Origin: a virus
Taxonomy: Duplodnaviria; Caudoviricetes
Length of the DNA: 58,999 bases
Virus record (IMG/VR): IMGVR_UViG_3300010966_000080
Coordinates: 1 to 58,999 of that record
Direction: 5' to 3' (one strand)
How positions within the stretch are numbered: position 1 is the first letter of the stretch; every line of letters starts with the position of its first letter. Below, piece by piece: positions 11,016 through 32,795 of the stretch. The notes under the pieces are model-generated. The model made no database searches. It worked only from the letters and a program-made list of their open reading frames with translations, and had not been told where the DNA came from. The position numbers and the translations under genes were made by a program.

Positions 11016-11930
11016 ATGGCTATGCCAATGCGGAGTACTGACTTCCGCTCCATCGTCGAACCGATCCTGAACGAAGAGTTCAACGGGATCTACGACCAGC
11101 GCGCAGATGAATTTGCTCAGGTCTTCAAGACCTTCAACGGCATCCCGCGCAACTACCACGAAGAGCCCGTCCTGTACGGTTTCGGCGCCGCGCCGGAGCT
11201 TCCGGACGGCATGCCGGTCACCTACCAGTCGGGTGGCGTGCTCTTCATCCAGCGCTACGTGTACAAGGTCTACGGCCTTGCATTCGCGCTGACGAAGGTG
11301 CTCGTCGAAGACGGCGACCACATTCGCATCGGTCAGACCTACGCGCGTCACCTCGCGCAGTCGCTGATCGAGACCAAGGAGACCCTTGGCGCGAACATCC
11401 TCAACCGCGCATTCAACGCCTCGTACGCGGGCGGCGACGGTAAGGAACTGGTGGCCACCGATCACCCGATTGTGAACGGTACCTTCTCGAACAAGCTGTC
11501 TGTCGCTGCGGCCCTGTCGCAGACCTCGCTGGAACAGCTCCTCATCCAGATCCGCAACGCTGTTGACAACAACGGCAAGCGCATCCGTCTCACGCCGAAG
11601 AAGATCGTCGCCGGTCCGTCGAACGTGTTTCAGGCTGAGGTTCTGCTCAAGTCGGTCCTGCGCACCGGTACGGCTGACAACGACATCAACCCCGTCAAGT
11701 CGATGGGTCTGCTGTCGGATGGTCAGGCCAACCTGTCGCGTGTCACCTCGTCCACCGCATGGTGGGTGCAGACCGACGCTCCGGAAGGCCTCAAGCTCGC
11801 GATGCGTCGCGGCCTTGAGAAGTCCATGGAAGGCGACTTCGAAACGGACAGCATGCGCTACAAGGCAACCGAGCGTTACGCGTTCGGTTGGACCGATCCG
11901 CGCGGCGTCTACGGAACGCCCGGCGTTTGA
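11016..11930 (+). CDS. major capsid protein
   Basis: 304 aa, AAGGAGG RBS; GGDGKEL..TDHP and DFETD..RYKA.ERY.FGW.DPRG; followed by a terminator. Confidence 0.88.
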   Translation: MAMPMRSTDFRSIVEPILNEEFNGIYDQRADEFAQVFKTFNGIPRNYHEEPVLYGFGAAPELPDGMPVTYQSGGVLFIQRYVYKVYGLAFALTKVLVEDGDHIRIGQTYARHLAQSLIETKETLGANILNRAFNASYAGGDGKELVATDHPIVNGTFSNKLSVAAALSQTSLEQLLIQIRNAVDNNGKRIRLTPKKIVAGPSNVFQAEVLLKSVLRTGTADNDINPVKSMGLLSDGQANLSRVTSSTAWWVQTDAPEGLKLAMRRGLEKSMEGDFETDSMRYKATERYAFGWTDPRGVYGTPGV

Positions 11931-12053: not shown

Positions 12054-13601
12054 GTGAAAGCTACGCTATCCGAGGTGGTCGGTAAGTTCCACCCAGACAT
12101 GCTGGCGCGCTACGACTTCAGCGGCGCCGCATACCACGGCGCGCTGGAGCGCGTGACAGGCATCCAGTGCCCGGATCACGGCGAGTTCAGCCAATACCCC
12201 GCGCAGCTACGCAAGAACGGCTCGGGCTGCCCGTCGTGCGGCGACCTCGTCCGCCGGGCCAAACGCCGCTCCCCTGTTGACGACGTACTGGCGCGGGCCT
12301 CAACCCGGCACGGCGGCTTCTACTCGTACGCAAAAACGGTGTACGTCAACAACACGACCAAGTTCACCGTGACATGCCCGCAGCACGGTGACTTCAGCAT
12401 CTCGCCGAACAACCACATGCGGGGGCAAGGGTGCCCGACTTGCGGCGCAACCAAGCGCGGACACCGTAAGGACGTGAGCGACGCAGCCCGCAAGACGGCT
12501 GACACCAAGCTCGCCGCGCACGCTGCCAGTTTCATATCAGAGGCGCGGGTGGTCCACGGCGACGCCTACGACTACAGCCTAGTCGAGTACGCGGGCCGCA
12601 AAGTCCCTGTGGCCATAGCGTGCCCGAAGCACGGCCTGTTTTATCAAGCCCCCGGCCATCACCTCTCCCGCGCCCACGGGTGCCCGGAGTGTTCGCACCA
12701 CCGCTCGAGGGGCGAGGCGGCGATCCTCGCCTTCGTGTCTATCTTCGCCACGGCGGAGACCCGCAACCGGCGCCTCATCGCACCGAAGGAGCTCGACATC
12801 TACGTGCCCGCCGCGTCGCTCGCCGTTGAGTACTGCGGGGAGTACTGGCACGGCGCGTCCTCCGTCGAAGAGGAGCGCACGGACCGGACGCGACACCTCG
12901 ACAAGCACAACGCCTGTGCGGTGGCGGGCGTCCGCCTGCTGACGGTGTACGAGAGCGAGTGGCTCTCACGCGCGCGGCCGATCAAGCGGCTGATCCGGGC
13001 CGCGCTGGGGAAGGCGCGGGGCAGGCTCATGGCCCGCAAGTGCGAGCTGCGGCGCGTCGGCGCCGCTGAGGCCTCAACGTTCTTCGACGCGTACCACCCG
13101 CAGGGTGGTGGGGGCTACGGCGACCACCACGGGCTGTACTGGGGCAGCAAGTTGGTGGCGTGCATGCGCTTCACCTTCGGCGGCAACGACCGGGGCGCGC
13201 ACGCCGACCGCGTGTGGACGCTGAGCCGGTACGCCACCCGCGTGTCGGTTGTGGGCGGCGCGTCGCGACTGTTCGCGGCCTTTGTGGCAGAGCGGACGCC
13301 GGATCTCGTAAAGTCGTTCTCCGACAACCGATACTTCACCGGCGGGATGTACGCGCGACTGGGTTTCACCCTCGAGGAGGAGAGTGAGCCGGACTATCAG
13401 GTGTACCACCCGAAGACAGGCCTGCTGCCGAAGACCTCGTGGCAGCGGCGCAAGATACCCGCCCGCATACGCGACATCGGCGTGCCTGAGATCTTCGATC
13501 CGACCACAGACCCGCGCAGCGAGCGCGACATGACCTACCTGCTCGGCGCGCAGCGCGTGTTCGATTGCGGCAAGAAGCGTTGGGTCTGGCGCGCGCCGTA
13601 G
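12054..13601 (+). CDS. free-standing Hef-like putative homing endonuclease
   Basis: Three CPxHGxF...GCPxC Zn repeats; Vsr/DUF559-like core ELDIY...AVEYCGEYWH; C-terminal LSRYAT..VVGGASRLF...SFSD.RY..G..Y...GF. Confidence 0.7.
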   Translation: MKATLSEVVGKFHPDMLARYDFSGAAYHGALERVTGIQCPDHGEFSQYPAQLRKNGSGCPSCGDLVRRAKRRSPVDDVLARASTRHGGFYSYAKTVYVNNTTKFTVTCPQHGDFSISPNNHMRGQGCPTCGATKRGHRKDVSDAARKTADTKLAAHAASFISEARVVHGDAYDYSLVEYAGRKVPVAIACPKHGLFYQAPGHHLSRAHGCPECSHHRSRGEAAILAFVSIFATAETRNRRLIAPKELDIYVPAASLAVEYCGEYWHGASSVEEERTDRTRHLDKHNACAVAGVRLLTVYESEWLSRARPIKRLIRAALGKARGRLMARKCELRRVGAAEASTFFDAYHPQGGGGYGDHHGLYWGSKLVACMRFTFGGNDRGAHADRVWTLSRYATRVSVVGGASRLFAAFVAERTPDLVKSFSDNRYFTGGMYARLGFTLEEESEPDYQVYHPKTGLLPKTSWQRRKIPARIRDIGVPEIFDPTTDPRSERDMTYLLGAQRVFDCGKKRWVWRAP

Positions 13602-14465: not shown

Positions 14466-16325
14466 GTGTCCTCGGGGCTCTACAGCGGCGTCTCTGGTCT
14501 GGCCCTCGGCTCGGGCCTCTACCGCAACGTCTCCGGCCTGTGGGGCGGGGCGAGCGGGCTGACGGCTGGCTTTGGGGGCGGCAGCCCCTACGGCGGTGCC
14601 TCGCTGTACCTCGACTTCCTGTCGATGACAGCCCCGACGTTCGACAACCGGATCACCTTCACGCGCGGCTCTAACGCCACGCTGACGGACAGCACCGGCA
14701 AGCTGACCTACGCCCCGGCGAACCTGTTGACCTATTCGGAGCAGTTCGACAACGCGGCTTGGACGAAGACAGCAACAGGGACTGGTGTTGTGCCGATTGT
14801 TACGGCGAACGCCGGAACCTCCCCAAACGGAACGCTTAATGCTGATCGTATACAGCTAGATAGTGGAGCCGCTGGGCAAAGTAGTGTTAACCAGACGGCG
14901 GCTGGTGCTCCTAGTGGAACTCCGGGGGTGTTCAGTATATGGCTGCGTTCTTTGGCGAGCGATGTGACGGTGACGCTTTTTTATGGCGCTTCCGTGCAAA
15001 ACGTAACCGTCACCGCAAGCTGGCAGCGTTTCACTTTTACGGTGGCCGCTCCCGCTTCAGGAGAGGTGCGGATTGCAAAACGTGATGCGTGGGCCAGTTC
15101 GGGCGCAGCCGATGTTCTTGCATGGGGCGCGCAGCTCGAACCCGTCACCTACCAGACGACCCCCGGCACCTATGTCGGCACCACGTCAACGGCCTACTAC
15201 GGCCCCCGCTTCGACTACGATCCGGTGACGCTGGCCGCGAAGGGGCTGCTGGTGGAGGAGGCCCGGACGAACTTGCTGACGTACTCGTCGGACTGGACGA
15301 ACGCGGCGTGGAGCAAGACCAATATCACGGTGACTGCGGCGGCAACCGCTTCACCAGACGGAACCGTTAATGCACAGAAACTGGCAGCTACGGCAACTGC
15401 CGTCGCTAACAACTTGAGCGGGTCAATCGTAGTAGCTGCTACTTCGGCTACCTATTCGATCTACGTAAAGCAGGGCACGAGCGCGACTATCGCGAACACT
15501 TTTGCTCTACGGAACATTACAACCGCCACCACCCTTATACTCGGCACGCTCAACTACGCTACTGGGGTCTGGACGTACAGCACCGGCAGCACTGGGGTCT
15601 CCGTGTCCAATGCTGGCAACGGGTGGTGGAGGCTACAGATCACCGCCACGACGGGCATCACTTCCGGCGATAGCCTTTCGGTTTACGTCGGTTTTGCGGG
15701 TGGCGCTGCTACCGCTGGTGACTTCCTCTACGCCTACGGCGCACAACTCGAAGCCGGTGCCTTCGCCACCTCCTACACCCCCACAGTGGCCTCGACCGTC
15801 ACTCGCTCGGCAGACGTCGCCACCATGACCGGGACGAACTTCTCAAGCTGGTATAACCAGAGCGAGGGGACGTTTGTGGTACAGGCCGATAGCCTCACTC
15901 TGTCATCGGTTGGGTGGCTGCTGACGGCAAGCGACGGCACGTCGAACAACCGGTTTGGCCACTACCGCTCCGGTGCGAACCTTGGCGGGTACGTTGTCAC
16001 TGCTACGGTGACGCAGATGGACCTTACACTTGCTTCGGTGGTCGCTAACACCCCCTTCAAGTCGTCTGTTGCTGCGACTTTCAACGACGGCAACACCGCC
16101 TTCAATGGTGCTATCGCGGCGGGTGATACCAGTATCACAATGCCGACGCTAAATAAGCTGGAGATTGGCGCGAATACGGGCGCGATCTACAACGGCCACA
16201 TCCGCGAGATCGCGTACTTCAACACCCGGCTCCCTAACGCCCAGCTACAGACGCTGACGGCCCCCGCGCTGACGGCGACACTGAGCCTCGACTTCACCTC
16301 CGGCGCATACACGGTAGGGTTCTGA
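14466..16325 (+). CDS. tail/head fibre with carbohydrate-binding-like modules, paralog 1
   Basis: FTRGSNAT; NLLTYSEQFDNAAW x2; PRFDYDP..KGLLVEEARTNLL; ConA/LamG-like C-terminus. Confidence 0.75.
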   Translation: MSSGLYSGVSGLALGSGLYRNVSGLWGGASGLTAGFGGGSPYGGASLYLDFLSMTAPTFDNRITFTRGSNATLTDSTGKLTYAPANLLTYSEQFDNAAWTKTATGTGVVPIVTANAGTSPNGTLNADRIQLDSGAAGQSSVNQTAAGAPSGTPGVFSIWLRSLASDVTVTLFYGASVQNVTVTASWQRFTFTVAAPASGEVRIAKRDAWASSGAADVLAWGAQLEPVTYQTTPGTYVGTTSTAYYGPRFDYDPVTLAAKGLLVEEARTNLLTYSSDWTNAAWSKTNITVTAAATASPDGTVNAQKLAATATAVANNLSGSIVVAATSATYSIYVKQGTSATIANTFALRNITTATTLILGTLNYATGVWTYSTGSTGVSVSNAGNGWWRLQITATTGITSGDSLSVYVGFAGGAATAGDFLYAYGAQLEAGAFATSYTPTVASTVTRSADVATMTGTNFSSWYNQSEGTFVVQADSLTLSSVGWLLTASDGTSNNRFGHYRSGANLGGYVVTATVTQMDLTLASVVANTPFKSSVAATFNDGNTAFNGAIAAGDTSITMPTLNKLEIGANTGAIYNGHIREIAYFNTRLPNAQLQTLTAPALTATLSLDFTSGAYTVGF

Positions 16326-16326
16326 T

Positions 16327-18546
16327 ATGGCCACGATGCTTTTCAACAACCTCATCACCTTCAGCCGGGGCACTAACGCCACCCTGACCGGCCCCACCGG
16401 CCTCATCCAGTGGGCACCAAGCAACCTGCTGACCTATTCGGAGCAGTTCGACAACGCGCCGTGGGCTAACACTGTACAAGGCACGGGCGTAGCGGCGACT
16501 GTAACCGCCAACGCTGGCACTGCACCTGATGGCACAGCCACGGCTGATCGGTTGCAATTTAGCCTCGCGGGCGGCACTACCACGAACGACATCACCCGCC
16601 GCCGCCAAGACTTTACGGCGCCCGCAACAACCTATGTTTTCAGCGTCTATTTGAAGACGTTTGATGGGTCTACGCAGACGGTTCACCTCGTCGGCCCGAC
16701 TGGCGCGACGACTAGCGTTGTAGTTACGGGCGACTGGCAACGGTTCTCTGTCAGCGGCGTCAGCACCGGTGGGGTTGTGTCTTACGCCATTGGCCTTCGT
16801 GGCGGATGGACCCCCATTAACTCTAACACTGCTGATGTGCTGGCTTGGGGCGCACAGCTCGAACTAGGCAGCACCGCGACCACGTACAACAGCACGACCG
16901 TCAAGAACCTGTTGGGCTACAGCGAGGCGTTCGACAACGCGGCTTGGACGAAGAGCAACGCGAGCATCGTGACGGGGGCTGCGGCCAACCCGGTCAATGG
17001 CCTGTTCAACGCGCAGAAGCTGATGGTGGATGCGGCTACGACCACACACCGCGCAAGCCAGATCGCCACCACTGCCAACGGCGTCAGCCACACTATGTCG
17101 CTGTATGTTAAAGCGGCTGAATACAGCCGTGTTGGGCTACGTGAAGGCAACTTTTCTGGCGCGTACGCCTCGTTCAATCTGGCTACGGGCGTTTTGATTG
17201 ACCAAGGATCGGGCGGCGTCGGTTCTATTGCTGACCTCGGCAACGGCTGGTTTCGCGTTTCAATGACAAGCGCGTCTGGCGGCGCTACTATGCGGCTTGA
17301 TATTTTTCCGCTACCCGCCAGCTACACAACTGGATCGCCCAGTATTGCCTACACAGGCGACGGCAACAGCGGCATCTACATCTGGGGCGCGCAGCTATCG
17401 GATAGTGGCAGCCTTGACCCCTACGTGCCCACCCCCGGTGCCGCACCGACCTCTGCCGCATACTACGGCCCCCGCTTCGACTACGATCCCGTCACACTAG
17501 CCCCCAAGGGGCTGCTGGTTGAGGAGGCGCGGACGAACTTGCTGACGTACTCGGAGGACATCACCAACGCGGCTTGGATTAAAACACTTTGCACCGTCGT
17601 TGCGAACGGCACTATTTCTCCGGACGGCGCTGCCGATGCTGACAAGGTAACGGACAACAGCGGCAGTGGCACCGAAGTCTCACAAACGGTAACGGTAACT
17701 TCCGGCGCAACGGTCGCAAACAGCCGCTACTTCAAATACATTGACTGCCGTTGGGTTAGGCTAACCATTGGTGATGCAACCAACTTTGTCCGTGGTTGGT
17801 TTGACATTCAAAACGGTGTTGTTGGCGGAACGAGTACCGGCGGCACCGGAACAGGTGCAGTGGTTTCTATCACCCCCTCTGGCAATGGATGGTATCGCTG
17901 CACTTTGATTGGCGCTCTTACCGGCGCTACTTCTTACCCCTGCCTTAGTATGACTGCGCTGGATAACAATACCGCTGCCCGCGTATCTGGCGGCTCTTAC
18001 TTCATCTGGGGCGCGCAGGCAGAAGCCGGAGCCTTCGCCACATCCTACATCCCCACAGTGGCCTCCACTGTCACCCGCTCGGCAGACGTCGCTACGCTGA
18101 CGGGGACGAATTTCGCCCCTTGGTACAACCAGAACGCTGGTACTTTAGTCGTCTCTGCAAGTCAGCCGACGATTTTTGGGCTGTCAAAAACCGCAGCGTC
18201 TGTCAACGATGTGGGTTCTAGTCGGTTCAATATATATCGACAAGCTCTGGGTGGAATTAATGGTTTCGTCACTCCGGGGTCGGGTGCAATCGCCAGCGGG
18301 GTTTCGGCAACTGCTAACACCCCGTGGAAGGCAGTTTTGGCATATACAACAACCGACGGGTATGTTTCGGCCAATGGCGCATCCGTCGTGTCCGGGGCGC
18401 ACACGATCCCGCTTGGAACTCTCAATAACCTGTGCATCGGTAACGCGGCTTCCATCGGAAGTGAGCATTTCAACGGCCACATCCGCTCCGTCACCTACTA
18501 CCCAGATCGGGCATCCAACACCCAGCTACAGAGCATCACGACATGA
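16327..18546 (+). CDS. tail/head fibre with carbohydrate-binding-like modules, paralog 2
   Basis: Same anchor motifs with three NLL.YSE modules. Confidence 0.75.
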   Translation: MATMLFNNLITFSRGTNATLTGPTGLIQWAPSNLLTYSEQFDNAPWANTVQGTGVAATVTANAGTAPDGTATADRLQFSLAGGTTTNDITRRRQDFTAPATTYVFSVYLKTFDGSTQTVHLVGPTGATTSVVVTGDWQRFSVSGVSTGGVVSYAIGLRGGWTPINSNTADVLAWGAQLELGSTATTYNSTTVKNLLGYSEAFDNAAWTKSNASIVTGAAANPVNGLFNAQKLMVDAATTTHRASQIATTANGVSHTMSLYVKAAEYSRVGLREGNFSGAYASFNLATGVLIDQGSGGVGSIADLGNGWFRVSMTSASGGATMRLDIFPLPASYTTGSPSIAYTGDGNSGIYIWGAQLSDSGSLDPYVPTPGAAPTSAAYYGPRFDYDPVTLAPKGLLVEEARTNLLTYSEDITNAAWIKTLCTVVANGTISPDGAADADKVTDNSGSGTEVSQTVTVTSGATVANSRYFKYIDCRWVRLTIGDATNFVRGWFDIQNGVVGGTSTGGTGTGAVVSITPSGNGWYRCTLIGALTGATSYPCLSMTALDNNTAARVSGGSYFIWGAQAEAGAFATSYIPTVASTVTRSADVATLTGTNFAPWYNQNAGTLVVSASQPTIFGLSKTAASVNDVGSSRFNIYRQALGGINGFVTPGSGAIASGVSATANTPWKAVLAYTTTDGYVSANGASVVSGAHTIPLGTLNNLCIGNAASIGSEHFNGHIRSVTYYPDRASNTQLQSITT

Positions 18547-23102: not shown

Positions 23103-24104
23103 GTGAGCAGCACCCCAGTGGCGTATTCTGGCACCATTTCGCAGACGAACTTTAACACCCGCAAGGTCATCGAGAATGCCGTGCGTCGGTGCAAGGTGCC
23201 TGCGCAAAGCCTCACCGCCGAACACGTCGACATCGCCAACGACCAGCTCTTCCTCCTCCTCAGCGATCTGGCCAACCAAGGCACGCCGCTCTGGTGCATC
23301 CAGAAAAGCATCTACCCGCTCTACGAGGGCAACTCCCAGATCGTCACCTACGAGGGCACGGTAGACATCCTGAACAGCAACCTGCGCTCGCTGCAGCAGG
23401 TCTCAGGCACCAATACCGACCTGCCCGCATCCCGCACCGTCGCCTTCGACAGCACCACGGCGGTCACCACCGTCGGCATCAAGTGGTCGGCCACGTCAGT
23501 GCCCGTGGCGCTGCAGCGCAGCGATGACGGCGTCACTTGGACAACCATCCAGACCGAGGTGCCCTCGGCCACCACAGGCCAGTGGACGTGGTTCGATCTG
23601 GCCACCAGCATCGCGTCGCTCTACTTCCGTGTGCTGGCCGCCACTGGCACGCTGTCCTTCGACCAGATCTACCTCGGCAACACGCCGACGGAGATCCCGC
23701 TGGCGCGCATGAACCGCGACGACTACACGAACCTGCCGAACAAATCCTTCCAGTCGAACCGCCCCCTGCAATACTGGCTCGACAGGCAAGTCCAGTCGCC
23801 GGTGATGAACCTGTGGCCGGTCCCCAATGCCGCCGCATCGGTCCAGCAGATCGTAGTCTGGGCGCAGCGCCACATCATGGACGTGGGCACCATGACCCAG
23901 CAGATCGAGGTGCCGCAGCGGTGGTACGAGGCCATCGTGTCCATGCTCGCCGCCAAGATGGCCATGGAGCTGGAGATGGTCGACCCGCAGCTCATACCGA
24001 TCCTCGACGCCAAGGCCGCGCAGGCGCTCTACGTCGCGCAGGCAGAAGAGCGCGACAACTCGCCGATGATGATCGCGCCCAACATTTCGATGTACACCCG
24101 CTAA
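23103..24104 (+). CDS. head-tail connector/adaptor-like protein
   Basis: SGT..FN...IE.A..RC...L.N.G..LW; RDDY.NLPNK....RP.QYW.DRQ; P.RWYEAI. Confidence 0.65.
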   Translation: MSSTPVAYSGTISQTNFNTRKVIENAVRRCKVPAQSLTAEHVDIANDQLFLLLSDLANQGTPLWCIQKSIYPLYEGNSQIVTYEGTVDILNSNLRSLQQVSGTNTDLPASRTVAFDSTTAVTTVGIKWSATSVPVALQRSDDGVTWTTIQTEVPSATTGQWTWFDLATSIASLYFRVLAATGTLSFDQIYLGNTPTEIPLARMNRDDYTNLPNKSFQSNRPLQYWLDRQVQSPVMNLWPVPNAAASVQQIVVWAQRHIMDVGTMTQQIEVPQRWYEAIVSMLAAKMAMELEMVDPQLIPILDAKAAQALYVAQAEERDNSPMMIAPNISMYTR

Positions 24105-25646: not shown

Positions 25647-26300
25647 ATGGCCACCACGATGACTTTCGAGACGCTGAAGCAAGACGTGCGGCGCTACCTA
25701 GAGCGCGGCGCGACCCTTGCCTCGGACGCCATTGTGTTCGAGCAGATCCCGCGCCTCATCAATCTGGCCGAGAGGCGGATTGCCCGCGAGCTGAAGGTGC
25801 AGGGCTTCATCGCCGCTGTCACCGACACGCTGGTCCCCGGGCAGTCTGTCTACCCCAAGCCGGACCGCTGGCGCGACACCGTGTCGATCAACATCGGCAC
25901 CGGTGTCGCGCTCGCCAACCGCACATTCTTGTGGACCCGCGACTACGAGTACCTGCGCTCGTATTGGCCGAACGAGAGCGAGACCGCGACGCCGGTCTTC
26001 TACGCGGACTACGATTACACGCACTGGCTGGTCGCGCCGACGCCCGATCAGGCCTACCCGTTTGAGGTGCTCTACTACGAGCTGCCGCCGCTGCTCGACG
26101 ACAGCATCCAGACCAACTGGCTGACGGAATACGCGCCCCAGCTCCTGCTGTACGGCACGCTGCTTGAGGCGACCCCGTTCCTCAAGAATGACGAACGCAT
26201 CGGGACATGGCAGCAGTTCTACGACCGCGCCGCCGCGATGCTCAACGGCGAAGATCTCGCCAAGATACTCGACCGCTCTGCGGTTCGTAAGGAGGCGTAA
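25647..26300 (+). CDS. portal adaptor / tail tubular protein A-like
   Basis: IP.LI.LAE.RI.RELK, VAPTPD..Y..E..YY, TNWL...APQLLLYG.L.EA. Confidence 0.75.
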   Translation: MATTMTFETLKQDVRRYLERGATLASDAIVFEQIPRLINLAERRIARELKVQGFIAAVTDTLVPGQSVYPKPDRWRDTVSINIGTGVALANRTFLWTRDYEYLRSYWPNESETATPVFYADYDYTHWLVAPTPDQAYPFEVLYYELPPLLDDSIQTNWLTEYAPQLLLYGTLLEATPFLKNDERIGTWQQFYDRAAAMLNGEDLAKILDRSAVRKEA

Positions 26301-30037: not shown

Positions 30038-30270
30038 TGATCGACCCGCGCGGCATGACATTGCTTCAGTGGGCGGATGCGGTTATACTCGCCGTCGGTG
30101 ACGCTTGGTCGTTCGGCCGCCTAGTTGACGAAAACGACTGGCAGGCGTGGGCTACAGCTTTCGTACGCGCGCAGCCTTTTGCGCAGCGCAACCCCCCGAA
30201 CCCGTACCAATTTACCGAGTGGCGCGACTGGGCCATGCGTGCATATCCAATGCTTGAGGGACAAGGCTGA
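30037..30270 (+). CDS. small Trp-rich protein
   Basis: MIDPRGM...WA...WQ.WA...PNPYQF.EW.DWA; coupled to neighbours. Confidence 0.65.
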   Translation: MIDPRGMTLLQWADAVILAVGDAWSFGRLVDENDWQAWATAFVRAQPFAQRNPPNPYQFTEWRDWAMRAYPMLEGQG

Positions 30271-32795
30271 TGCCCGACGAATACGGCTACGATCCTGCCA
30301 TGGACTACGGCGCGCTGCAGGCGGCCGCACAGCCGACGCCCCAGACCATCCCCACTGTCACGACTGCGCAGCCGACGCCCCAGACCATCCCCACTGTCAC
30401 GACTGCGCAGGTTCCAGTCGGGGGCTTGTCGTACACGGCATCCGGCATGCCTTACGCCAGCGACCCCAACATGACGGAAGCAGATTTCCTCGCCGGATTG
30501 GCCTCCGCGCCCCCTGTGGTCATGCCGTCGACGACCGCCACCCAGAACTACATGGCTGCGGCGCGCAATCCCGGCCTACCCGCGCACTTGCAGTACACCC
30601 CGATCACACAGACGCTGAACGCGGGGTACGACCCAAAGGCAACCTTCTCGCTCCCGGCGGGGTCCGAGTTCACCATGACGGATCAGGAGCGTAACGACGC
30701 CTACGTAAACTGGCTGCGGGAAGTTCAGCAGTACCAGAACAAAAACTGGGTGGTACAGACGGCTCCGACCGGTTACGGCGGCGTCAACATGGCGCTGCAG
30801 TCGGGCACGCCTTACGTCCTCCGCAACAACGAGACTGGCGAAACCGTCGCGCAAGGCAGCGACGACGCCACCCTAGAGCGGATCGCGGGCCTTATTTTGG
30901 GCGGCTCGCTCGGCGACAATTGGCAGCTCTTCGAGCCGGGCCAGAGTGCGTACGGCAACCTGACTGCGGGCGTGGATGGCGCTGCGTCAGCGGTTGGGGG
31001 GAACACCGGCTACGGCAACTCGGAATATGTTGAGGGCACGAATGGGCAGCCGGGGTACTGGCTGAACCCGGTAGCCGGGGCTCTGCCAACGCCGGGGTGG
31101 CTCGGAGAATTTTTAAAAACGGCCCTTACTGTGTGGGGTGCGCCGATAGGCGCAATGCACCTCGCCCCCTTGCTCGGTGGCGGCCTTCTGGGGGCTGCTG
31201 GCGCGGGCGCAGTGACCGGAGGCGCAACTAGCGCTATCAACGGCGGTGACATCCTCAAGGGCGCGCTGTTGGGTGGTGCTGGTGGGGCCGCGATGTACGG
31301 TCTGGGGTCGGCCGTCGGCCCGGCAACAAGTGGCCCGAGCGGCGGCTCGGGCAGCGGCTCGGGCAGCGGCTCGGGCAGCGCTCCAACCGGAGGCGACCCT
31401 GCGATTGTCGTCACTGGCGGTGGTGGGTCGCCTGTGTTCACCCCACCCACCCCTGTGCTGGCGTCGAACACCGCGCAACAACAGCAGCAGCAGCAAGGCC
31501 CACTGTCCGACCCCAATCTGGTGCCGGGCGAGACACCTATCACGGTGGTAGGTGGTGGATCGCCTGTGTTCACCGCGCCTCCGGGGGTTCTCGGGATGGG
31601 CGCGTCCGCTCTGGCGGGGCTGAACACGCAGATGGCCCTTGATATAGCAGCGCAGCAGCAGGCTGAGCAGCAGGCGGAGGAGCAGGCCGCCCTCAACGAG
31701 ATCGTCGTCACTGGCGCGCGGCCGAGCCCCAGCCCAATTCTAGCTCCCAGCGCGCCCGACGTGTATCGACCGATTACGGACGCGAACCCGGCGGTCACCG
31801 CGCTGCAGAACCAGTACGCAAACGACTTCCCCGACCCCAACGAGATCGTCGTGGCCGGGAAGCCCGGCGGTGACTTGGGTGCCCTGAGCTCGCTGGTCGC
31901 GCCGACGCTGATCAGCAGCCCCAGCCAACTGGCCAATTTGCAACAGCAGACGGTGGATCCGACCAACCCCGACGAGATCGTCGTGACGGCGAAACCCAAC
32001 CCGGTCGTAACGCCCACGATACCCGACCTGACGACCCCGATCACAAACGCAACGACCGAGACACCCGCGCCTGAGAAGTCGACACTCGACAAGATCGCCG
32101 ACTACCTGCAGCTCGGCAGTCTGGGCATCGGTCTCGGCAGCACCCTCCTCGGCGGGGGCGGCGGAGGCGGCGCGCTGGCCAAGATCCCCGGCGGCCTCGG
32201 CTCCGGCTCTGGTAGCGGTATCTACTCGGCCAAGCTCCCGACCCCCGGACAGGGCGGCGCGTTCACCGTCGGCGGCCTCGGCGGAGGCACAGGGGCTGGC
32301 GGAGCCACAGGCTCGGGCCGCGTTGGTGGCACCGCTCCGGCTGGCGGCTGGTCGCAGTACGGCGCAGGCTCCGGCGGTGCAGGCTCCGGCGGCGCCGGTG
32401 GTTCCTCTTTCGCCAGCCTCATACCGCAATACGGCGGCGTAAACCCGCCCGGCTTCGACACGGACACGTGGCGCTGGCTCGGGCCGCAATTGGCCAACGC
32501 GCCGATGCTCGACACCTCGCGGCTTCCCGTGCGGATGGCGCACGGCGGCTACGCCGTCGGCGGCCCCGGTGACGGGCGCAGTGACGAGATCCCGGCGATG
32601 TTGTCCGACGGCGAGTACGTCATCGACGCCGAGACTGTCGCCCTGCTCGGCAACGGCTCGAACAAGGCCGGAGCGCAGCAACTCGACCGCTTCCGCGCCA
32701 ATATCCGCAAACACAAGGGCCGTGAGTTGGCTCGAGGCGACTTTAGTGTTAACGCTAAGCGGCCTGAAACATACCTGTCAGGAGGACGTTCGTAA
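30270..32795 (+). CDS. putative internal virion/ejection protein with TonB-box-like repeats
   Basis: Gly-rich hydrophobic segments; (E/A)IVV(T/A) repeats; C-terminal GPGDGRSDEIPAMLSDGEYV. Confidence 0.65.
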   Translation: MPDEYGYDPAMDYGALQAAAQPTPQTIPTVTTAQPTPQTIPTVTTAQVPVGGLSYTASGMPYASDPNMTEADFLAGLASAPPVVMPSTTATQNYMAAARNPGLPAHLQYTPITQTLNAGYDPKATFSLPAGSEFTMTDQERNDAYVNWLREVQQYQNKNWVVQTAPTGYGGVNMALQSGTPYVLRNNETGETVAQGSDDATLERIAGLILGGSLGDNWQLFEPGQSAYGNLTAGVDGAASAVGGNTGYGNSEYVEGTNGQPGYWLNPVAGALPTPGWLGEFLKTALTVWGAPIGAMHLAPLLGGGLLGAAGAGAVTGGATSAINGGDILKGALLGGAGGAAMYGLGSAVGPATSGPSGGSGSGSGSGSGSAPTGGDPAIVVTGGGGSPVFTPPTPVLASNTAQQQQQQQGPLSDPNLVPGETPITVVGGGSPVFTAPPGVLGMGASALAGLNTQMALDIAAQQQAEQQAEEQAALNEIVVTGARPSPSPILAPSAPDVYRPITDANPAVTALQNQYANDFPDPNEIVVAGKPGGDLGALSSLVAPTLISSPSQLANLQQQTVDPTNPDEIVVTAKPNPVVTPTIPDLTTPITNATTETPAPEKSTLDKIADYLQLGSLGIGLGSTLLGGGGGGGALAKIPGGLGSGSGSGIYSAKLPTPGQGGAFTVGGLGGGTGAGGATGSGRVGGTAPAGGWSQYGAGSGGAGSGGAGGSSFASLIPQYGGVNPPGFDTDTWRWLGPQLANAPMLDTSRLPVRMAHGGYAVGGPGDGRSDEIPAMLSDGEYVIDAETVALLGNGSNKAGAQQLDRFRANIRKHKGRELARGDFSVNAKRPETYLSGGRS
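30330..30407 (+). repeat. perfect 39-bp tandem duplication (QPTPQTIPTVTTA x2)
   Basis: Two identical units read directly. Confidence 0.9.

Follow-up and report, generated by a model that had tools for sequence, protein, structure and literature searches.

How the internal proteins and the DNA of podoviruses cross the periplasm, and which energy source drives this passage, is an open question, and where phages depend on TonB, the receptor has until now been taken as the reason. The viral record IMGVR_UViG_3300010966_000080, analysed here over its whole length of 58,999 bp (hereafter the window) and judged complete (CheckV completeness estimate 100), raises the question of whether a phage could carry a TonB box of its own. 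An open reading frame (ORF) of 841 residues, located at 30270..32795 on the + strand, contains five short motifs that an initial annotation had described as an array of TonB-box-like sequences on an ejection protein. In its sequence, its context and its conservation, the motif looks like a TonB box. The reading preferred here, for which the chances are judged to be about even, is that the motifs form an array of TonB-box mimics on a podovirus ejection-type protein, copying the boxes of the host's transporters in a manner akin to the boxes of bacteriocins, the binding to TonB and the location in the virion both being putative.

The motif array and its likeness to transporter TonB boxes

All five annotated strings are present in the translation of the ORF, on the + strand: DPAIVVTGG (motif 1, residues 376-384, 31395..31421), ETPITVVGG (motif 2, residues 421-429, 31530..31556), NEIVVTGAR (motif 3, residues 476-484, 31695..31721), PNEIVVAGK (motif 4, residues 523-531, 31836..31862) and PDEIVVTAK (motif 5, residues 567-575, 31968..31994). 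For comparison, reference boxes were taken from a Caulobacter metagenome-assembled genome (MAG; G001) that was reached through a related phage locus and that serves as a stand-in host. This genome gave 28 matches to the Plug domain (PF07715), and the 60 residues preceding the Plug were used in 27 of the 28, one region of 11 residues being left out. An unsupervised motif finder applied to these 27 N-termini returned T-E-V-E-[AE]-[IVL]-[VI]-V-T-[AG]-[QS]-[RK], which is clear by eye in 25 of them. The earlier statement that Caulobacter-type bacteria typically have (D/E)EIVVT(G/A) as their TonB box thus holds in the one genome tested.

With a profile of the nine-column core, motif 3 was the best match (20.7 bits), followed by motif 5 (17.6 bits, window DEIVVTAKP), motif 4 (11.7 bits, NEIVVAGKP) and, as a moderate match, motif 1 (9.6 bits, PAIVVTGGG), as compared with a leave-one-out median of 18.1 and a lower quartile of 13.0 bits for the transporters of the stand-in genome. 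Motif 2 was a weak match, below 6 bits. On these scores, three of the five copies are good matches to the stand-in Caulobacter boxes, one is moderate and one is poor. With the longer profile of 12 columns, three windows reached 19.2, 14.2 and 9.3 bits, against a leave-one-out median of 24.8 and a lower quartile of 19.3 bits for the transporters.

The likeness to the transporter boxes extends over nine consecutive columns, namely an acidic residue, an acidic residue or Ala, I/V/L, V/I, V, T, G/A, any residue and R/K. The scores of the best phage copies are on a level with those of the transporter boxes, and in both cases the box lies in a flexible segment. On the other hand, the phage copies are internal and repeated (five of them), are followed by neither a Plug nor a barrel, lack the preceding T-E-V and belong to a protein that has no signal peptide. 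Pfam gave no family for the 841-residue protein at E up to 1, and in the absence of a Plug domain or barrel a TonB-dependent transporter was rejected as its identity.

Chance is an unlikely source of the array. At 12 columns, the three windows of at least 9 bits compare with a mean of 0.03 in shuffled sequences, and none of 3000 whole-protein shuffles reached three. At nine columns, four windows of at least 9 bits were found in these 841 residues, as against five in the 57,730 residues of the other frames of the window and five in 102,206 residues from bacterial loci. Within the phage, a profile built from the phage motif gave three strong matches (20.7-29.3 bits), all of them in ORF 30270-32795, and elsewhere in a six-frame translation of 78,735 residues only two weak ones (12.4 and 11.6 bits). 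The first of these, QQIVVWAQR at 23844 (+), lies in ORF 23103-24104 of the structural module and is probably due to chance.

These counts bear on the explanation that the motifs are cleavage sites of the head maturation protease, or that they merely reflect the low-complexity composition of the linker. It is true that one phage protein has protease-type PHROG matches (11016-11930) and that the motifs are placed in an exposed linker. Nevertheless, protease sites would be expected in capsid and scaffold proteins as well, and no strong copy occurs in the other phage frames, while shuffles that keep the composition almost never produce the motif. This explanation is therefore regarded as scarcely probable.

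Conservation of the array across homologues

The protein belongs to a family that is large in freshwater and soil metagenomes. In a word-indexed search, 367 of the 8000 scored sequences reached E 0.001 or better, and the exhaustive search with a profile yielded 11,138 cluster representatives at E<=0.001, of which 3,841 were retained at 1e-10 and 1,024 at 1e-30. Of 121 sequences, two of at most 560 residues were dropped, and from the middle parts of the other 119 an unsupervised motif finder recovered x-[DEN]-[ED]-I-V-V-T-[GA]-x-[RK]-x-P. The counts among these 119 were 106 for I, 117 for V, 92 for T, 113 for G/A and 92 for R/K. Column by column, this family motif corresponds to the final nine positions of the transporter box.

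A simple pattern of the motif matched 94 of the best 120 homologues, with up to nine regular-expression matches in one of them, and the nine non-matching homologues that were inspected all carried variants in which S, K, N or R replaces T or G/A. When the core profile of the transporters was applied, at least one match of at least 12 bits was present in 102 of the 120 (195 matches, compared with 1.3 in shuffles). Among 150 representatives at 50% identity, such a match was found in 96 (161 matches against 1.9 in shuffles). Each representative had zero to five copies; the relative position of the copies in the protein had a median of 0.58, and their spacing one of 50 residues. In the four closest relatives, each of the five positions has its orthologue, and the motif has been kept there while its flanks have diverged. 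At the position of motif 1, close relatives carry GEIVVNAP or DPNIINVVG, and at that of motif 2, relatives carry VTPITVAGT or VDPITVTGG.

Absence of the motifs from homologues had been named at the outset as an observation that would speak against a TonB-box array. They are present in a large family, but the distant relatives that have the C-terminal domain in common mostly lack them, which suggests that the array is not required for the core job of the protein. It is best read as an addition on one large branch and not as part of the protein core.

Distant homologues without the motif (L009, L011, L012, L014, L020, L022 and L026) have another conserved N-terminal module ahead of the Gly-rich hydrophobic part, of the form G-D-T/S-M/V-L-A/V-H-I/V/L/M-N/S/T-P-R/E/N-E followed further on by N-P-x-T-G-L-x-E-F/Y. 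The family would thus possess at least two alternative "front ends". These homologues come from a scan of genome contigs that gave 24 loci, all of them on MAG contigs. The bins of L003-L026 were labelled Chloroflexota, Bathyarchaeia, Saccharibacteria, Coriobacteriia and others, and several of the contigs measured 50-63 kb. Given these sizes and such disparate bins, the 24 loci were not used as prophages for host assignment and were taken instead as whole phage contigs that had been mis-binned.

Architecture of the 841-residue protein

The array lies in a Pro-rich linker (residues 350-603, 31317..32078) that was modelled by AlphaFold2 (AF2) as unstructured. The AF2 model as a whole, built from an alignment of 24 sequences, had a mean predicted local distance difference test score (pLDDT) of 45.5, and values fell below 50 at residues 338-452, 472-506 and 524-603, none of the five motifs being given a strand or other secondary structure. 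The motifs are therefore predicted to sit in a flexible, unfolded segment, the alignment being shallow, and the intramolecular fold that would have contradicted the annotated role does not appear in the model. The region had been called Pro/Gln-rich. Residues 371-600 are indeed Pro-rich (P 14%, A 13%, T 10%, V 9%, G 9%), but Gln is moderate only (9%).

The linker is bordered by two hydrophobic Gly-rich segments. The first precedes the motifs, in agreement with the annotation, and consists of Gly/Ala-rich hydrophobic helices at residues 277-348 (31098..31313) that are possibly membrane-inserting. Residues 281-370 contain 31% G, 18% A and 12% L, Kyte-Doolittle windows of 19 residues reach 1.25-1.45 at residues 284-319, and the AF2 helices span residues 277-289, 291-301, 308-323 and 328-348. 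A fold search showed a likeness of residues 304-351 to membrane helical hairpins that stays within noise (Z 4-5). The second segment comprises a hydrophobic helix at residues 605-622 (32082..32135), conserved in the family consensus, and continues as a Gly-rich stretch to about residue 730 (G 28% and L 20% at residues 601-640, G 36% at residues 641-740).

The conserved C-terminal domain (residues 740-841, 32487..32795), helical in the AF2 model, has more than 40 invariant columns across 24 sequences and is common to many phage proteins labelled tape measure. PHROG matches of the protein (PHROGs 6090, 25241, 3547, 5448 and 17300) are confined to residues 733-829. A sequence-profile search of the PDB gave, in this C-terminal part, a marginal match to the tape measure protein gp16 (8zdo_S, E 0.0011), together with two rows at chance level. 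A fold search with the whole model against 48,161 chains had a best Z of 5.2 and none of 8 or more, a result that the pLDDT of 45.5 makes little informative. In the ESM Atlas, residues 725-841 matched unnamed viral clusters only, a "crAss cargo protein" cluster at 0.79 being below the level that counts. Tape measure was rejected as an identity on the grounds that the match is limited to residues 733-829, that the model is mostly unfolded and not a long helix, and that the phage has a podovirus-type adaptor with no tube, sheath or chaperone.

Upstream of these parts, the N-terminal variable region (about residues 60-270, 30447..31079) contains a small alpha/beta domain in the AF2 model, with strands at residues 159-224 and a block-mean pLDDT of 70-87 at residues 171-220. 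The N-terminal 270 or so residues (30270-31079) are mosaic, in that two of the four closest relatives (P0002 and P0004) have an unrelated N-terminal part, their close likeness to the query beginning at the hydrophobic segment. Near the N-terminus, a perfect tandem repeat of 39 nucleotides (2.1 copies, 30330-30410) duplicates a Pro/Thr-rich unit of 13 residues, of which the closest relative, P0002, has a single copy.

The N-terminus, read by eye, shows no signal peptide, and this weighs on the idea that the boxes are decoys that occupy TonB, either to shut TonB-dependent uptake or to block rival TonB-dependent phages and bacteriocins. Such decoys would draw on the same motif evidence as the preferred reading, and free TonB-box peptides are described as inhibitors of TonB function in PMC9841981. 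Lacking a signal peptide, however, newly made copies would stay in the cytoplasm, and the few copies borne by a virion would be too few to titrate TonB. A decoy function is accordingly considered very improbable, and the titration or superinfection block that had been offered as a variant in the initial annotation is the least likely part of it.

Gene position and the virion module

Genes on the + strand encode a terminase, a portal, a capsid/protease-type protein and a homing endonuclease, while replication genes lie on the opposite strand. The endonuclease is an HNH/homing enzyme of 515 residues (12054-13601; PHROG 559, E 1.2e-90) placed between the capsid-type gene and the tail genes. Beyond it are two adjacent tail-protein paralogues (14466-16325 and 16327-18546), each of which matches PHROG 5939 over its C-terminal 360 or so residues. 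An SU10-type adaptor (PF24175, E 3.4e-29) is encoded at 25647-26300 on the + strand and is followed by a fibre-like protein of 700 residues, a virion structural protein of 539 residues (PHROG 3287), a small ORF and then ORF 30270-32795. On the 3' side of the latter come a protein of 343 residues matching PHROG 4287 ("DNA ejection protein") and three more large ORFs. The G+C content of the window is 59-70%.

A scan of 27 ORFs gave no match to tail tube, sheath or tape-measure chaperone families. This result and the podovirus-type adaptor suggest a short-tailed, podovirus-like phage. The ATG start of ORF 30270-32795 overlaps with the stop codon of the gene before it (TGATG), the stop codon of the ORF overlaps with the start of the gene after it (TAATG), and GAGGGA/GGAGGA sequences precede both overlaps, so that translational coupling of this ORF to both neighbours is predicted. 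The placement is that of podovirus ejection or internal proteins, in a virion module without tube or sheath, among ejection-type neighbours and in the same order as in phage GB2A. From this gene position and the PHROG neighbours, we infer that the 841-residue protein is a podovirus ejection-type virion protein.

The ejection proteins of podoviruses (gp14-16 of T7; gp7, gp20 and gp16 of P22) are large, are encoded after the tail genes and are thought to leave the capsid unfolded and to bridge the envelope. Searches of Pfam, the PDB and folds gave no sequence or fold match between them and the 841-residue protein. In the literature searched, no TonB-box array is described for the T7 and P22 proteins, whereas the present protein carries a TonB-box-like one.

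Named relatives are limited to four near-identical phages of Caulobacter vibrioides, RW, RLK, KcrB and GB2A (proposed genus Riverwalkvirus), which are described as the Riverwalk cluster in PMC11053796. Gene product gp065c of GB2A and RW, labelled "tail length tape measure protein", is syntenic with the 841-residue protein and shares with it a Gly-rich hydrophobic part, a Pro-rich linker and the common C-terminal domain, from which its label probably stems. By tblastn, the alignment is confined to the last 85 residues, with 67% identity. The GB2A protein has one strong box, DEIVVTPSQ (16.5 bits), and differs in its length (580 residues as compared with 841) and in having one strong copy where the present protein has three or four. 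The motif of gp065c is not discussed in section 3.5 and further passages of PMC11053796, and the section of that article on the Riverwalk cluster holds no proteomic data on the virion.

Predicted docking on TonB and other possible partners

In the Caulobacter MAG the TonB gene adjoins those of ExbD and ExbB. The complex of its residues 140-240 (alignment of 29 orthologues) with residues 461-500 of the phage protein, around motif 3, was predicted, and it obtained an interface score (ipSAE) of 0.35 (0.35, 0.37 and 0.34 in three runs), against 0.00 for the best of three controls. The three included one that kept the peptide and replaced TonB by an unrelated protein, which scored 0.00. The runs agreed in at least 88% of contacts, and the pLDDT of the partner was at least 51. 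In the calibration, 116 of 157 solved complexes and 2 of 215 mismatched pairs attained the mark; scores of at most 0.60 among these were obtained by only 18 of the 157 solved complexes and by both of the mismatches that passed. Own alignments having been used, these counts hold only roughly. The binding of TonB that had been proposed is thus graded as "weak support" for the motif 3 segment with the Caulobacter TonB.

Strand addition is not peculiar to TonB, and the motif might bind in this way some other envelope protein of the host, such as TolA, a component of the Lpt or Bam machinery, or a periplasmic protease or chaperone. The C-terminal domains of TolA and TonB have related folds and both bind by strand addition, and the natural ligand of TolA in E. 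coli is the N-terminus of TolB. In the Caulobacter MAG, the N-terminus of mature TolB is unlike the motif, whereas 25 of the 27 transporter N-termini resemble it. In favour of another partner, Tol is exploited by other phages and by bacteriocins, as stated in PMC7391070. On balance, a partner other than TonB appears improbable.

Weighing the TonB-box reading

Several observations weigh against a functional TonB-box array. The phage motif lacks the upstream T-E-V columns, and at 12 columns even the best copy (19.2 bits) only comes to about the lower quartile of the transporters (19.3 bits). Two of the five copies, motifs 1 and 2, match poorly. Caulobacter is a stand-in, picked since the sole cultured relatives infect Caulobacter and the MAG could be reached, and the phage contig in this MAG has 50% G+C and is probably mis-binned. 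Part of the array results from a recent duplication of a unit of 132 nucleotides: the 29 nucleotides downstream of motif 1 are 90% identical to the 29 that follow motif 2, at a spacing of 132 nucleotides. The members of the family are related, so the counts given above are not independent events. Of the 150 representatives, 54 are without a match of at least 12 bits, and some members carry variants such as EIEVEAK and ENPITVKGK that are less TonB-box-like. Among the distant homologues in MAG loci, a regular-expression match occurs in 4 of 24, one of them probably spurious, with five of the 24 truncated at the 5' end. Finally, the docking score is weak, and its pass may reflect the memory of solved complexes of TonB with TonB boxes, that is, likeness and not binding.

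Some of these observations would be expected if the motif were a generic sticky strand for phage assembly. Copies from several subunits would then join one another, or bind the portal or tail proteins, so as to form or stabilise the ejection complex, and the resemblance to TonB boxes would have arisen by convergence. The I-V-V-T core is strongly strand-forming. As in structural repeats, the copy number varies, from zero to five in the 150 representatives (at least 12 bits) and up to nine regular-expression matches, and the array grows by tandem duplication. Variants with alternating charges such as EIEVEAK, as well as the weak docking score, would suit such a strand too. Nevertheless, the likeness over nine columns goes beyond the hydrophobic core, including the acidic pair before it and the G/A-x-R/K after it; no strand or fold at the motifs appears in the model from 24 sequences; and the peptide scored nothing when an unrelated protein took the place of TonB. 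A strand of six residues is too short for a membrane barrel. An assembly strand is consequently held to be rather unlikely.

Comparison with bacteriocins and with receptor-dependent phages

The use of a TonB box by a foreign protein is already known from bacteriocins; here a look-alike is found on what seems to be a phage ejection-type protein. According to passages of PMC10994204, bacteriocins such as pyocin S2 present a TonB box of their own from a disordered region to TonB for energised import. The TonB-dependent bacteriocins (pyocin S2 and the group B colicins) offer the best analogy to the phage protein, in that they are foreign proteins bearing a box of their own on a disordered stretch. 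They differ in having a single box near the N-terminus and in threading through the transporter, while the phage protein has an array in its middle and no receptor-binding or killing domain was found. Pfam, PDB sequence and fold searches returned no receptor-binding or cytotoxic domain of the bacteriocin type, which is no proof of absence, and membership among the bacteriocins is not claimed.

Phages T1 and phi80 depend on TonB and on the proton-motive force through their receptor FhuA and its TonB box, as set out in passages of PMC11658791. They resemble the proposed reading in that infection is coupled to TonB, and they differ in that the box belongs to FhuA and not to the phage. A phage-encoded box would be unlike this usual, receptor-borne dependence, as the initial annotation pointed out. 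Passages on phage in PMC11658791 describe no phage-encoded TonB box. In the full-text literature searched, from which most subscription journals are missing, the matches for TonB box and phage were limited to papers on T5 and FhuA, on bacteriocins and on the mechanism of TonB, and no phage virion protein with its own TonB box was found, which is not proof of absence.

Proposed mechanism and significance

If the array of TonB-box mimics functions as such, the protein would leave the capsid as an extended chain once the tail has opened the outer membrane, and the linker between the two hydrophobic Gly-rich segments would become exposed in the periplasm. There, the C-terminal domain of the host TonB could capture a box as an added beta-strand, and the ExbB-ExbD motor, driven by the proton-motive force, would hold or pull the chain, the boxes at intervals of about 45-50 residues serving as repeated handles. 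In a broader form, which is possible but with the chances leaning against it, this very large family of ejection proteins would enter the cell in a bacteriocin-like manner, TonB-ExbBD reeling in the array hand over hand, one box per about 50 residues, perhaps through an unplugged TonB-dependent transporter.

If the array is confirmed, a TonB box borne by the virion would represent a second and direct route of phages to the only energy supply of the cell at the outer membrane, and phage entry would be linked mechanistically to the import of bacteriocins. New routes to resistance would also be expected, through alleles of TonB or ExbBD and not through loss of the receptor. Given the size of the family in metagenomes from freshwater and soil, such a mechanism would be common, if it is real. 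If the broader form holds, family-wide reeling by TonB would be the long-sought energy source for the translocation of ejection proteins, a step that would open the path for the DNA.

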